Origin: Dehalococcoidia bacterium
GTDB lineage: Bacteria; Chloroflexota; Dehalococcoidia; GIF9; AB-539-J10
Length of the DNA stretch: 46,054 nucleotides
Reading direction: 5' to 3'
NCBI GenBank assembly: GCA_047920855.1
Contig: JBLRXG010000001.1
Coordinates: 1 to 46,054 of the forward strand
Shown: in pieces, positions 2,689-36,834 of the stretch
Position numbering within the stretch: the first letter of the stretch is position 1
Layout of the letters: each line of letters starts with the position of its first letter
Made by a program: the position numbers and the translations under genes
Notes under the pieces: generated by a model
Seen by the model: the letters and a program-made list of their open reading frames with translations, nothing else
What the model was told of the DNA's origin: nothing
The model's database searches: none

Positions 2689-4056
2689 ATGAACAACAGC
2701 CGCCAGAACATACTCGACGACGACCGGATCGGCCGCCTGATGGTCAAGCTGTCCCTCCCCGCGCTCACCGGCATTCTCGTGATGACCCTCTACAACGTGG
2801 TCGATACCATCTTCGTGGGGCATTATGTGGGCCCGGATGGCATCGCCGGCCTGACCATAGTCTTCCCCGCGCAGATGCTCATGATGGCGATCGGGCAGAT
2901 GATGGGGATGGGAGGCTCATCGCTGATCTCCCGATCGATCGGAGCAGGGAAGATCGAAAGGGCAGAGCACGCGCTGGGCAACGCCCTTACGGCGGCTGCA
3001 GCACTCTCAGTGATAGTCATGATAGTCGGCCTAACCAACACCGACGCTCTACTCAGGCTGATGGGGGCATCGGAGAGCGTCCTGCCTCACGCCCGCGACT
3101 ACATGACATTCATACTAGTTTCCGTGCCATTCAAAACGATCACCATGGCAATGAACGCCCTGATAAGAGCAGAGGGCAACGCCCGCGTTCCCATGGTCGG
3201 GATGATTATGGGTGCCGTCCTGAACATCATACTTGACGCCGTATTCATCGTACTGCTGGGCATGGGTATAAGAGGAGCGGCTCTGGGCACCTTGATAGCG
3301 TCCATTGTCACCGCCTCTTACTTCATCATCTACTACGTGTCGGGCAGGAGCTTCCTGAAGATCCACACGAATAACCTCGCTATCGAATGGGGCATCCTGG
3401 GAGCCATTCTCGCCATAGGGATCTCTGCATTCGTGAATCTCTCGGCCGGCAGTCTGGCAATAGTCTTCATCAACAGGACGCTGGCCGCCTTAGGAGGTGA
3501 TGTAGCCATCTCCGCCTACGGGCTTGTCAATCGCATTATGTCGTTCGTCTTTATGCCCGGTATCGTCATCGGGATGGGCCTGCAGCCTATCCTGGGGTTC
3601 AACTACGGCGCAAAGCGCTATGACAGGGCACTGAAGGCCATCAAGATAGCCGTGATCGCTGCTACAGCCATCAGCATCGCCGCATTCCTGGCTGTATACT
3701 TCGTTCCTGAGGTATTCATCCGTATCTTTACCACCGACAGAGATGTAATCGCAATGGGAGGCTACGCTGCCAGGCACATCTTCTTCCTGAAATACCTCGT
3801 AGGCTTCATCATGATCGGCTCTGTGATCTTCCAGGCCATAGGCAAGGCGCCCCAGGCGTTCATAATAGCAATTGCCAGGCCGGTCGTGTTCCTGCTTCCG
3901 CTGGTCTTCATACTGCCCAACTACTGGCAGCTTGACGGCGTGTGGCTGGCATTTCCCGGCGCAGACCTGCTTACCTTCATAATGGTTCTTGTTCTACTCA
4001 TCCCGCAGATTCGGACGTTCCGCAGGCTGGACCACGCGAGCCGCGGCGAGGTTTGA
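2689..4056 (+). CDS. MATE family efflux transporter
   Basis: 455 aa with 12 TM segments and a typical MATE N-terminus (LMVKLSLPALTGILVMTLYNVVDTIFVGH). Lies 48 nt downstream of marR. Confidence 0.9.
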   Translation: MNNSRQNILDDDRIGRLMVKLSLPALTGILVMTLYNVVDTIFVGHYVGPDGIAGLTIVFPAQMLMMAIGQMMGMGGSSLISRSIGAGKIERAEHALGNALTAAAALSVIVMIVGLTNTDALLRLMGASESVLPHARDYMTFILVSVPFKTITMAMNALIRAEGNARVPMVGMIMGAVLNIILDAVFIVLLGMGIRGAALGTLIASIVTASYFIIYYVSGRSFLKIHTNNLAIEWGILGAILAIGISAFVNLSAGSLAIVFINRTLAALGGDVAISAYGLVNRIMSFVFMPGIVIGMGLQPILGFNYGAKRYDRALKAIKIAVIAATAISIAAFLAVYFVPEVFIRIFTTDRDVIAMGGYAARHIFFLKYLVGFIMIGSVIFQAIGKAPQAFIIAIARPVVFLLPLVFILPNYWQLDGVWLAFPGADLLTFIMVLVLLIPQIRTFRRLDHASRGEV

Positions 4057-33804: not shown

Positions 33805-35553
33805 TCATGCCAAATCCTCAACCGAACCATCGCCTGCGATCAGTTGTGATTCGTAGATCTCCCTGTACAGGCCGTTGCGGGCCATGAGCTCATCGTGTGT
33901 ACCCTTTTCAACCACCTCCCCATCCTTGAGCACCAGGATGAGATCTGCATTCCTGATGATGGGCAAGCGGTGGGTAATGATGAAGGTAGTCCTACCCTTG
34001 ATAAGCTCATCCAGCGCCCGCCGCATCAGTAGTTCGGTCTCTACGTCCACACTGGAAGTGGAGTCATCCATAATCAGGATGCGGGGGTTCACGAGCAGGG
34101 TACGGGCCACAGCGAGCCGCTGCTTCTGTCCGCCGGAGAGGGTGACCCCTCGCTCACCCACCCAGGTGTCATAGCCATCAGGCAGGCTCTCGATGAAGTC
34201 GTGAAGCTGGGCCGCCCTGGCCGCGGCAACCACCTGATCCATATCGGCACCCACCGTGCCATAGGCGATGTTGTCCCGGATCGTAGCCGAGAAAAGGAAG
34301 GTGTTCTGCTGGACTATGCCCACGTTCTTGCGCAGTGAATCAAGTGTCACGTCACGAATGTCAGTGCCGTCGATGCAGATCCGTCCTCCGCTGACATCGT
34401 AGAACCTGGGTATGAGGTGGGCGATAGTGCTCTTGCCGCTGCCCAATCCTCCCACAAGGGCCACCAGTTGTCCCGGCTCTGCGGTGAAACTAACGTCTCT
34501 GAGCACCGGGGCCGCCGAGTCATATCTGAAGGTGACGTTGTCAAAACTGACCGCTGCGCTTATGTCGTTGAGTTCAACGGCACCGGGTTTCTCGCGCACC
34601 ATCGATTCGGTGTCCAGTATCTCCAGGATACGCTGTCCTCCGGATACGGTGCGCGAGAGGATGTTGGTCATGAAGCCCAGGCGGCGCACCGGCATGGCCA
34701 TGATGGTGAGATAGAAGATGAACTGGGTCAGCTCACCCACAGTCAGATTGCCTGCCGCCACCTGGCGCCCTCCGTACCACAGGATGAGGGGTATCGGTAT
34801 GGTCACCAGGAAGACCATCAAGGACAGGTTAAAGGCCCTCTTGCGCGTTGCTCTGATATGTTCGTCATAGAGAACCTCCGCCTGACCGGAGAATTTGCCG
34901 CTCTCTTCCTGCTCGTGCGCGAACGACCTCACCGTCCGCACACCGGTCAGGTTCTCCTCCAGAATAGTACCCAGCACTGCCATCAGTTCCTGGATCTTGA
35001 GCCAGATAGGACGGAGCAGCCTGGCGACAATGACCGCCCGCCAGCCCACCGCAGCGAGGAAGCCCATCGTCAGAAGGGCCAACGGCAGGTTCAGCCTGAC
35101 CAGCAAGAAGGAGATGCCCACGAAGAGAATGGCTATCTGCAGCATGCCGAGCAATCCCCGCCCGAAGAACATGCGTATGGCTTCGACATCGGAGGTACCG
35201 CGGGACATGAGTTCTCCCGTCTGAGCGTGGTCGTGAAAGGCAAAACTCAGGCGCTGTAGCTTGTCATAGAGGGCATTCCTTATGTCGTAGGCCGTCTTCT
35301 GAGATACCAGTTCAGTGAGATAGGCGTTACCGAAGGCGGATATCCCCCTCATAGCTCCGGCGCCCACCACGGCCAGGGCCAGCCACATGAGTGTACCTAG
35401 CTCACCGTCAGCCAATACCGTATCGATCGACCGGCTGATCAGTTGCGGTATAATTAGGACAAACGCCGTGCTGACCATCATGCAGATGAACGCAAAGAGC
35501 ACCCTGCCCCAGTACTTCTTGACGAAGCCCATCAACCTCAAAAGGATCTTCAT
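33805..35553 (-). CDS. ABC exporter, fused permease/ATPase, partner 1
   Basis: Six-TM exporter domain. Walker A GGLGSGKST, signature LSGGQKQR, Walker B ILIMDDSTS. Adjacent to its partner, implying a heterodimer. Confidence 0.9.
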   Translation of the reverse strand: MKILLRLMGFVKKYWGRVLFAFICMMVSTAFVLIIPQLISRSIDTVLADGELGTLMWLALAVVGAGAMRGISAFGNAYLTELVSQKTAYDIRNALYDKLQRLSFAFHDHAQTGELMSRGTSDVEAIRMFFGRGLLGMLQIAILFVGISFLLVRLNLPLALLTMGFLAAVGWRAVIVARLLRPIWLKIQELMAVLGTILEENLTGVRTVRSFAHEQEESGKFSGQAEVLYDEHIRATRKRAFNLSLMVFLVTIPIPLILWYGGRQVAAGNLTVGELTQFIFYLTIMAMPVRRLGFMTNILSRTVSGGQRILEILDTESMVREKPGAVELNDISAAVSFDNVTFRYDSAAPVLRDVSFTAEPGQLVALVGGLGSGKSTIAHLIPRFYDVSGGRICIDGTDIRDVTLDSLRKNVGIVQQNTFLFSATIRDNIAYGTVGADMDQVVAAARAAQLHDFIESLPDGYDTWVGERGVTLSGGQKQRLAVARTLLVNPRILIMDDSTSSVDVETELLMRRALDELIKGRTTFIITHRLPIIRNADLILVLKDGEVVEKGTHDELMARNGLYREIYESQLIAGDGSVEDLA

Positions 35554-35799: not shown

Positions 35800-35828
35800 T
35801 TGACACGATAGCTGCGTCATGCTAGCAT
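35800..35828 (+). promoter_or_regulatory. strong sigma70-type promoter: TTGACA, 17 nt including TGc extended -10, TAGCAT
   Basis: Read directly: TTGACA at 35800-05, TG at 35820-21, TAGCAT at 35823-28. It is divergent from the ABC exporter promoter. Confidence 0.5.
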
Positions 35829-35872
35829 ATGATATCCGGGCAGAAGGTCAGTGCCCGGGAAGGAGGTGGGGC

Positions 35873-35938
35873 ATGACACGAAGACAAGCTTGGTTGTGCC
35901 GATGGGTGTTTCCTGACCGGGGCTCTCTGGCCCTGTAG
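35873..35938 (+). CDS. possible 21-aa small ORF (MTRRQAWLCRWVFPDRGSLAL)
   Basis: GGAGG lies 6 nt upstream of the ATG. The stop codon TAG sits in the loop of the hairpin CCCTG-TAGC-CAGGG. Confidence 0.25.
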   Translation: MTRRQAWLCRWVFPDRGSLAL

Positions 35939-36099
35939 CCAGGGGTCTCTTGACGGTGGGATGCATTGCCAGAGAGCACAGGGAAGCCCCGAGCTCTTCG
36001 TCTGATAGGCAAGGCTCCGAGTTAGTGGAGCAACGGTAGTTCAGCCGGAAGTTGAAGTGGAAGAGTAGGGGTGATAGGTAACTGAATAGCGATATTCAG

Positions 36100-36136
36100 G
36101 GGCGGGCTTCGGGATCGGAGCCCGCCCTTCTTATGT
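36100..36136 (+). terminator. intrinsic terminator
   Basis: A 9-bp GC stem pairs GGGCGGGCT (36100-08) with AGCCCGCCC (36119-27), followed by TTCTTATGT. Confidence 0.6.
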
Positions 36137-36210: not shown

Positions 36211-36834
36211 TCACCATGCCTTGATATGTCTGGCTATGCTGCATAGCGCTTCGAACGCCTCGGCAGAAGGCAGCGAATAGTCAGTCTTTATTCGCACGTA
36301 TCCGTGCTTTGGCTCGGGGATGATCCCGATATTGCCCGTAACCACCTTACCATCGGCTTTCAGCAGCCTGTCGGCAAGACTATAGTCGAAGTTCAGCGTC
36401 TGTGCCAGCGAAACGTCTCCCTTCCACTGAATTCCCATTACCCTGCCCCAGATGAGCGGACTCCTCCTTTTCGTCAGCCTGGTTCTCTTGAGCATCCGGG
36501 CCGCGCTGATGTTCGGCGCCTTGACCAGATAGTTTATGAAATACGTTGTGCCGTACTGAGTAGACGTGCTGATCACGGTTGCCGAATCTATGCTCCTGTC
36601 CTCGAAGACAGCTACTCCCTCAGCCTTCTGGCCTGAGGCGCTCCCCAGCCCTATTCTTCCTCTGGCATCGTCATGTTCAGCCTGGGAGACCTGCACCCCA
36701 ACACCCCAGAAGTGCTGAAAGAGCTCATGTAGCTTAGATCCCTCCGCTTTCTTCCTCTTCCGCAATATCAGAGGCAGGGCCACGCCGATAAGGAGCGCTA
36801 TTAGAGGGCCGATGATGCCGGGCCAGCCTTCCAT
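36211..36834 (-). CDS. membrane-anchored hypothetical protein (one N-terminal TM)
   Basis: 207 aa with TM segment GIIGPLIALLIGVALPLIL followed by RKRKK. Starts 4 nt after the purC stop. No family recognised. Confidence 0.55.
   Translation of the reverse strand: MEGWPGIIGPLIALLIGVALPLILRKRKKAEGSKLHELFQHFWGVGVQVSQAEHDDARGRIGLGSASGQKAEGVAVFEDRSIDSATVISTSTQYGTTYFINYLVKAPNISAARMLKRTRLTKRRSPLIWGRVMGIQWKGDVSLAQTLNFDYSLADRLLKADGKVVTGNIGIIPEPKHGYVRIKTDYSLPSAEAFEALCSIARHIKAW

Follow-up and report, generated by a model that had tools for sequence, protein, structure and literature searches.

A conserved micropeptide and three-way-junction RNA unit of uncultured Dehalococcoidia, a candidate dual-function RNA gene

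We analyzed a 46,054-nucleotide (nt) stretch of a Dehalococcoidia bacterium genome (GenBank assembly GCA_047920855.1, contig JBLRXG010000001.1, positions 1 to 46,054 of the forward strand), here called the window, and focused on its positions 35800–36136. On the plus strand, this segment has a near-consensus promoter, a strongly folded RNA of about 300 nt and a terminator hairpin. It is a real, conserved and previously uncatalogued gene, whose family matches no catalogued RNA or protein family, and the same unit is common to about a hundred uncultured species of Dehalococcoidia. In our reading, to which we give a probability of roughly 0.6, it is an independent gene for a lineage-specific dual-function RNA, combining the messenger RNA (mRNA) of a micropeptide with a separate RNA domain. 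An earlier inspection of the letters alone, here called the sequence-only reading, had proposed an independent plus-strand unit for a novel small RNA (sRNA), possibly with dual function, and the conservation of promoter, fold, open reading frame (ORF) and terminator across the order supports that proposal.

We propose that a strong sigma-70-type promoter would drive synthesis of the ~300-nt RNA, which would end at its own intrinsic terminator, and that the RNA would have two modules, each under its own kind of selection. The first module, consisting of helices P1, P2 and P4 with the Shine–Dalgarno (SD) sequence and a small ORF (sORF), would be an efficiently initiated small mRNA, with a 5′ hairpin, a perfect SD and a start codon enclosed in a modest hairpin. 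As peptide, no more than the first ~14 residues would be kept, the later codons being kept only as the 5′ strand of P4, and translation would always end inside the P4 tip. The second module would consist of a compact three-way junction, whose internal loop/helix core is invariant and one of whose arms is GNRA-capped, followed by a small hairpin and the terminator. Transcription and termination as drawn here, as well as peptide production, are predictions from sequence. The junction, which makes up the non-coding 3′ domain, is under structural selection, and the coding signature is separate, lying in the sORF.

The distribution of the unit was examined by searches of different reach. By BLAST, 28 of the 36 genomes of the window's genus match at 74–90% identity, and none of the 24 genomes from other families of the order does. 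Within the family, the unit is present in 76 of 119 genomes and in 16 of 20 genera, and a nucleotide profile matched over nearly its full length at each of 20 loci taken from other genera. The covariance model R1, built on the three-way junction, scores 104 bits in the window and matches 50 of 72 family genomes and, at 23–41 bits, 20 of 72 sister-family genomes. R1 also matches one genome among ~140 from the rest of the class, and none of ~140 sampled phylum genomes outside the order, including several complete 1.4–1.9-Mb genomes of another family of the class. When a degenerate pattern was run on one genome per species (185,579 species), 75 contigs matched, with titles naming Dehalococcoidia, Dehalococcoidales or Chloroflexota/Chloroflexi/Chloroflexia metagenome-assembled genomes, except two titled only ‘bacterium’. 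Conservation in related genomes, proposed as a check by the sequence-only reading, thus extends across the order, in RNA structure as well as in sequence.

The 306-nt plus-strand RNA folds at −135 kcal/mol (z = −4.3), and none of 100 shuffled sequences folds as well; the minus strand of the same stretch is less exceptional (z = −3.4). RNAalifold on 29 genus sequences gave 80 pairs, 18 of which have compensatory changes. We also built an order-wide alignment of 66 sequences, none of them more than 90% identical to another. In its consensus structure 90.2% of the cells are paired, compared with 45–52% when the partners were slid by 1–3 columns, and 45 of the 63 pairs change on both sides, with none of 500 shuffles reaching any observed value. 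Because the sequences are related, these shuffle counts should not be taken as probabilities; kinship does not affect the control with slid partners or the compensatory changes seen between families. As judged from these alignments, the RNA fold is under selection.

The most conserved part of the RNA is the three-way-junction domain (35980–36075, plus strand like all other elements of the unit), which carries no coding signal in any frame. Its closing helix P5, GCCCC-GA-GCUCUUC / GAAGAGU-A-GGGGU, is 99.6% paired with seven compensatory pairs, and in the sister family its outer part reads CUCCC/GGGAG instead of GCCCC/GGGGU. The junction core, CGAGCU opposite GAGUAG, is invariant, and one arm is capped by GGAA, GAAA, GUAA, GCAA or UGAA. 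The arms are P6 (36014–36031) and P7 (36040–36056), the latter having a GNRA-type loop. In constrained folds, the junction was kept when the sORF was covered or held single-stranded.

No conserved unpaired seed was seen in the alignments. We infer that the junction works as a folded RNA, with a protein or small ligand as its binding partner, and not by base-pairing, because it has no conserved single-stranded stretch, its core is invariant, its fold persists in the constrained folds, and a paralogue appears to lack the sORF.

That paralogue belongs to a divergent variant, found in 18 of 202 order genomes, with GUUCC/GGAAC as its outer helix and CGAGCUCCUC...GAGGAGUAGUGGAAC as its core. In one sister-family genus, the variant has a related 20–21-codon frame (MTKRFLICRLLIGSRPQPGA) with the same basic-hydrophobic pattern, without W, F and P. 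In the window's genus, five genomes have the variant, and the four with readable upstream sequence apparently have neither sORF nor P4. Junction-only copies (loci L172, L174, L175 and L176 in genomes G033, G031, G026 and G004, at about 1240–1700 of each locus) consist of GUUCC-CGAGCUCCUC...GAGGAGUAGUGGAAC and a terminator, directly after a promoter-like TTGAAA...TGtTAAAGT. The window's own genome has no junction-only copy, and genomes of another genus carry both unit types.

These copies bear on the view that the RNA is the mRNA of a micropeptide and nothing else, its 3′ 200 nt being a stabilizing untranslated region and terminator with no function of their own. Such a view agrees with the strong promoter, the strong SD and the conserved N-terminus of the peptide. 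We find it very doubtful, as the core of the junction is invariant, compensatory changes are seen in the junction across two families, its conservation exceeds that of the sORF, and it also occurs as a junction-only variant.

Some further observations were made on the copies. GTCA/TGAC-rich repeats flank the junction-only copies. Five loci of the sister-family genus (L177, L178, L180, L181 and L183) have the same architecture with another peptide (MTKRFLICRLLIGSRPQPGA, MAKLVLFYRLFIWSRPQPEVR), and an extra GNRA-capped hairpin (AUCC-GCAA-GGAU) is placed inside their junction. Two sORF-bearing copies occur in some genomes (L089, at G113:C85, around 3290–3382; and G064:C4:42331–42426). The extra copy in G113 encodes MTRIEVWLCRWIFPYQGSPAA, and its junction scores 41 bits, with no obvious terminator seen behind it.

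The sORF begins at an ATG (35873) located 4 nt after the SD sequence AAGGAGGTG (35860–35868), and spans 21 codons, MTRRQAWLCRWVFPDRGSLAL, to a TAG stop at 35936–35938 (35873–35938 in all). The SD core GGAGG does not vary within the genus and occurs at every one of the 87 distinct loci. A well-spaced SD and an ATG opening a 21-codon ORF were already seen in the sequence-only reading, and the ORF with its SD turns out to be intact at each of these 87 loci. Its length is exactly 21 codons in all 29 genus members, with TAG, TAA or TGA occupying one and the same stop position, and an SD-led frame of 20–29 codons is present in other genera, in the sister family and in the single out-of-order genome. 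A strict search for W-x-F/Y/L/W-P is matched by 85 of the 87 loci, and the other two are intact with one substitution each. The conserved first ~14 residues read Met, a small residue, two basic residues, Q/E, A, W/M, L, C/V, x, W, x, F and P.

Codon usage was tabulated for 84 sequences anchored on the invariant Trp. Ala at position −5 (80 of 84) is written with four codons, Leu at −3 (74 of 84) with six, Pro at +3 (84 of 84) with three, and Phe at +2 (83 of 84) with two, TTT and TTC. The basic residues at −8 and −7 are encoded by CGA, CGG, AGA, AGG, AAA and AAG, and the third base of the Q or E codon at −6 is always a purine. Entropy in the conserved block is higher at the third codon position (0.99) than at the first (0.69) or the second (0.58). 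Both the codon table and this periodicity agree with translation of the frame.

A coding score was computed in the manner of RNAcode, as the observed minus the expected BLOSUM value per codon change. For the block from −7 to +3, it is +2.27 per differing codon in frame, versus +0.09 and −0.31 in the shifted frames, and synonymous changes amount to 35% in frame, versus 18% and 7% in the shifted frames. In a six-frame test of the order-wide alignment, only the sORF frame stands out. The sORF tail, from +4 to +9, has no coding signal and forms the 5′ strand of P4. Loss of the ancestral AUG is made good by another AUG or a GUG in the same frame (L058, G274). In all 85 loci compared, the stop codon precedes the 3′ strand of the P4 base by 16–43 nt, and the other two frames have a stop in this interval in 58 and 53 of the 85. 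The comparative evidence strongly indicates that the sORF is selected at the amino-acid level over about its first 14 residues, and therefore a dual-function RNA, one of the options listed in the sequence-only reading, is favored. The peptides matched no Pfam or NCBIfam model.

The same features can be read as those of a purely non-coding RNA, in which GGAGG and AUG would be structural, or a 5′ stabilizer binding the 30S subunit, and the frame would be a by-product of conservation. GGAGG can indeed pair with UUUCC, the AUG is within P2, no coding signal is seen in the tail of the frame, and conservation is highest in the 3′ domain. Also, 5′ hairpins and SD-like 5′ stabilizers are known in Gram-positive mRNAs. 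However, helices cannot explain the frame-specific substitutions, namely six codons for R/K, six for Leu, four for Ala, and a purine third base for Q/E. Moreover, the GC dinucleotide of the Ala codon is kept in both families, though P2 is apparently elsewhere in the sister family, start-codon losses are rescued by in-frame starts, and all 87 frames are intact. We thus regard a purely non-coding RNA as quite improbable.

Several points weigh against the dual-function reading or limit its support. RNAalifold pairs the invariant UUUCC in the Phe-Pro codons with the SD GGAGG, to which it is complementary, and neither side varies, so part of the apparent peptide conservation could be RNA constraint. 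The divergent variant has L-x-I-G in place of W-x-F-P, so none of the peptide's residues is required everywhere. A copy is missing from several near-complete genus genomes, one of them at 99% completeness, and therefore the gene is either not essential or hard to assemble. Finally, the genomes of one order are related to each other, so that the counts overstate independent support.

The promoter was detected by a promoter scan. Its −35 box, TTGACA (35800–35805), and extended −10 box, TGcTAGCAT (35820–35828), are separated by a 17-nt spacer and score 10/12 with TG, agreeing with the near-consensus TTGACA-N17-TGc-TAGCAT noted earlier from the sequence. Promoters of this score class match four times in the region, versus 0.9 expected. 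In the 29 genus members, TTGAC is invariant with the same spacing, and it is also seen in other genera and in the sister family. TGnTAnnAT is kept in the alignments of the genus, the other genera and the sister family, and both boxes keep their position ahead of the 5′ hairpin in every alignment. Transcription would start at about 35832–35836.

The first module of the RNA is made of three hairpins. P1 is the 5′-terminal hairpin (35836–35858), where CCGGGCA (35836–35842) pairs with TGCCCGG (35852–35858). Picked out from the sequence in advance, it was recovered in both the minimum-free-energy and the centroid folds, with compensatory changes in the genus. Order-wide, all five P1 pairs have double changes and 84% of the cells are paired, the alignment being ragged there. 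P2 is the start-codon hairpin, GGCATGAC/GTTGTGCC (35870–35900), resting on the fold and on genus covariation; order-wide, six of its seven pairs have double changes and 88% of the cells are paired.

P4 (35922–35977) is a long hairpin, supported by fold and covariation, whose 5′ strand is the sORF tail and whose variable tip holds the stop codon. Its base is a perfect 10-bp helix, GCTCTCTGGC (35922–35931) with GCCAGAGAGC (35968–35977). The sequence-only reading was right about this helix and wrong in placing the stop codon in a tetraloop, as the fold puts it in the irregular apical part of the long hairpin. Order-wide, eight of 13 P4 pairs have double changes, and the four basal pairs are invariant or nearly so. 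A candidate hairpin P3 (CCGAU/AUCGG) fits many genus members, overlaps P2 and has one compensatory case; it was not kept as a part of the structure.

Two other pairings involve the translation start region. In the window, at 35852–35900, AUGCC occurs twice, as it does in the family, in the 3′ strands of P1 and P2, and GGCAU, which holds the start codon, could pair with either AUGCC. This is the alternative pairing suspected in the sequence-only reading. A pairing of the SD with the terminator tail (AAGGAG/CUCUUC) is available in the genus and was rejected, the tail not being conserved in other genera.

Downstream of the junction lies P8, a small hairpin (CTGAAT agcgat ATTCAG, 36082–36099) supported by the fold and by genus covariation; at its position the sister family has a hairpin of other sequence (GATC-loop-GATC). 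The putative intrinsic terminator (36100–36136) consists of a GC-rich hairpin of ~12 bp (stem 36100–36127) and the T-rich tail TTCTTATGT, and is based on the fold and on a T-rich tract in aligned members. Order-wide, all 12 of its pairs have double changes and 95% of the cells are paired, and a terminator-like hairpin with a T-rich tail ends the unit in all alignments. A simple terminator scan did not call the hairpin at 36100–36127, where the T-tail is interrupted. The terminator had been described as a 9-bp GC stem with a T-tail; its hairpin covaries, whereas its stem is longer, ~12 bp, and its tail is not continuous. Termination probably takes place at this hairpin.

The unit lies in a gap between the start of an ATP-binding cassette (ABC) exporter gene (33805–35553, minus strand) and the end of a gene for a 207-amino-acid protein (36211–36834, minus strand) behind purC. 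As stated earlier from the letters, no ORF of at least 60 amino acids is contained in the gap, none lying wholly inside it. The exporter and the gene at the purC tail are the neighbors in the window's clade. In other clades, asparagine-synthase-like or carbamate-kinase genes are found upstream, and at some loci an RNase_H_2-like gene followed by phosphofructokinase is found downstream. Over 83 distinct loci, the commonest layout has a divergent gene upstream and a convergent gene downstream, and the next gene downstream in the window is convergent. The most frequent co-directional downstream family, RNase_H_2-like (PF13482), accounts for 18 of the 83 loci. The 207-amino-acid protein, encoded directly behind purC, has no Pfam match, and its homologues adjoin the RNA only in the closest relatives (L002, L012).

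Since the flanking genes differ among loci, the unit is not a leader or riboswitch for a fixed gene, as the sequence-only reading had held for the window and as the variable neighbors over 83 loci bear out. A riboswitch was also rejected for its identity, there being no constant downstream gene over these loci and no match to a known aptamer model. Attenuators or regulatory upstream ORFs (uORFs) of the trpL, ilvB-II and fthC types require a constant co-directional downstream gene, which the unit does not have. As in dual-function sRNAs, its promoter and terminator are its own and independent of the neighbors, as far as sequence evidence goes.

A different role for the sORF has to be weighed here. 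It could be a cis-acting sensor, encoding a leader or arrest peptide, such that a ribosome located at W-x-F-P and P4 remodels the downstream RNA and gates the junction or terminator read-through. In this direction point the end of conservation right after F-P, with a tail that is free as peptide, the one or two Trp codons in the sORF, and the stop, which in every case lies in the P4 tip and 16 nt or more ahead of the 3′ strand. Furthermore, the P4 base and the P5 inner helix are near-identical and unusually invariant (GCUCUYC/GRAGAGY). Their four strands, the first of which lies inside the sORF, might thus swap partners in principle, as in an attenuator; in 93% of cells the 3′ strand of P4 would be able to pair with the 5′ strand of P5, and the architecture is like that of the fthC and ilvB-II uORF motifs (PMC11109978). 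On the other hand, the downstream gene is not consistent, no antiterminator is conserved, the terminator sequences differ among genera, and the divergent variant is without W, F and P. The alternative pairing of P4-3′ with P5-5′ is no better than in shuffles, its helix, at −7.6 kcal/mol, is weaker than P5, at −9.7 kcal/mol with the outer helix in addition, and constrained folds keep the junction. We hold a sensor role to be unlikely.

A more specific form of this idea is rather unlikely. The RNA might be a ribosome-coupled device, in which the nascent …A-W-L-C-R-W-x-F-P pauses the ribosome on a signal, for example tryptophan or charged tRNA-Trp. A ribosome on the P4 5′ strand would then decide, during transcription, between P4 plus P5 and the P4-3′/P5-5′ hairpin, and a trans-acting three-way-junction RNA would be switched on or off by strand exchange between GCUCUYC and GRAGAGY. 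If this were true, the device would be an attenuator having a free-RNA fold as its output, not a downstream gene. Unfolding of the junction gated by translation was rejected, the alternative helix being possible, but not above shuffles and weaker than P5, and was kept only as a kinetic idea of low probability.

The dual-function reading was also weighed against known RNA families. With Rfam 15 at gathering thresholds, the whole window gave tRNA only. At E up to 10, the region gave three chance-level matches of 14–19 bits, versus cut-offs of 45–59, and seven distant homologues gave nothing meaningful, with a weak RsmY match (E = 0.32) in one relative. The covariance-model comparison with Rfam, suggested in the sequence-only reading as a way to refute novelty, thus found no family. 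RNase P RNA (303 bits), transfer-messenger RNA (tmRNA; 143 bits) and the small signal recognition particle (SRP) RNA (73 bits) are on other contigs of the same genome. The sequence-only reading had failed to match the element to RNase P, tmRNA, SRP or the common riboswitch cores, rightly so, and the first three are now located elsewhere. In the literature, no description of the RNA was found, and a 50-genome survey of non-coding RNAs lists only the rdhA motif for Dehalococcoides.

It could still be a diverged housekeeping or known regulatory RNA (6S RNA, a CsrB/RsmY sponge, a riboswitch or a type I toxin mRNA), or a protein gene on the minus strand, a possibility to which we give next to no credence. 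For 6S RNA, the model RF00013 has no match in this genome or in 41 family genomes, and its absence of matches is to be read with the insensitivity of the model, which detects 6S in five of 14 known genomes in a control. The 6S RNA of the window's family is very divergent or absent, as none was detected by RF00013 in the 41 genomes, and this would speak for the unit being a diverged 6S RNA. However, the consensus fold is multi-branched, a series of hairpins and a three-way junction in which the 5′ and 3′ ends do not pair with each other, not a rod with a central bubble, and 6S RNA was rejected.

A CsrB/RsmY-type sponge would agree with the purine-rich RNA, its GGA runs and the one RsmY match. 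The sequence-only reading had noted a purine-rich, GGA-dense stretch and listed a protein-sequestering RNA among its options. The stretch exists, but it is made of the 3′ strands of P7 and P5 and does not offer free GGA sites, and the sequestering option falls with it, the GGA runs being helix strands and CsrA (PF02599) not being found in 31 related genomes. The sole GGA in a loop, in the GGAA of P7, is replaced by GAAA, GUAA or UGAA in relatives. For a riboswitch, a regulated downstream gene is lacking. A type I toxin mRNA was rejected since the peptides are charged throughout, with no stretch of membrane-spanning length, unlike a hydrophobic membrane helix.

The minus strand of 35831–36136 and of its relatives is nearly stop-free, with a median stop-to-stop frame of 80 amino acids. 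These long open frames could speak for a minus-strand gene, encoding a P/L/S-rich protein that could mislead gene callers. They are long because the plus strand is purine-rich, and they have no coding signal, so the protein was rejected as a composition effect. The absence of Pfam and NCBIfam matches also stands against a known family.

Dual-function sRNAs include RNAIII/hld of S. aureus, SgrS/SgrT of E. coli, SR1/SR1P of B. subtilis, and AzuCR, and those known act by base-pairing through exposed loops. By kind, the unit appears closest to dual-function sRNAs such as RNAIII, SgrS and SR1. It shares with them a promoter and terminator of its own, a structured RNA of a few hundred nt, and a conserved small ORF together with a conserved non-coding part. 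It has no sequence or structural homology to them, however. It also differs in that a conserved single-stranded seed could not be found, its RNA part folds as a compact three-way junction, and one helix incorporates both the tail and the stop codon of the sORF.

Another likeness is to uORF motifs. In the fthC motif, the SD and AUG are between hairpins, an in-frame stop is inside the next hairpin, and a terminator hairpin is at the end (PMC11109978). The unit resembles the fthC and ilvB-II motifs (PMC11109978, PMC10272879) in having the SD and AUG between hairpins, the stop in the next hairpin and a terminator at the end. Those motifs serve one constant gene by a choice between antiterminator and terminator, whereas the unit has variable neighbors, no conserved antiterminator, and a conserved junction of ~100 nt that separates the sORF hairpin from the terminator.

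To our knowledge, the raiA motif and Chloroflexi-1 RNAs have no conserved translated frame. They are, like the unit, lineage-restricted orphan RNAs that are independently transcribed (a prediction in the case of the unit) and supported by covariation (PMC2864571). Unlike a member of either, the unit was not matched by the Rfam models of these RNAs, even when E values up to 10 were allowed.

With the unit, one RNA family and one micropeptide family are added, neither of them described before and both left unannotated because gene callers skip frames of 20–29 codons. Its carriers are a large group of uncultured Dehalococcoidia of sediments, peat and aquifers. With ~90 distinct sequences that have both RNA covariation and a coding signature, it is an unusually well-supported dual-function candidate outside the model phyla. 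It may be a clean system for studying how one set of nucleotides accommodates both a translated frame and an RNA fold, and the invariant junction core would be a defined target for finding a new RNA–protein or RNA–ligand interaction.

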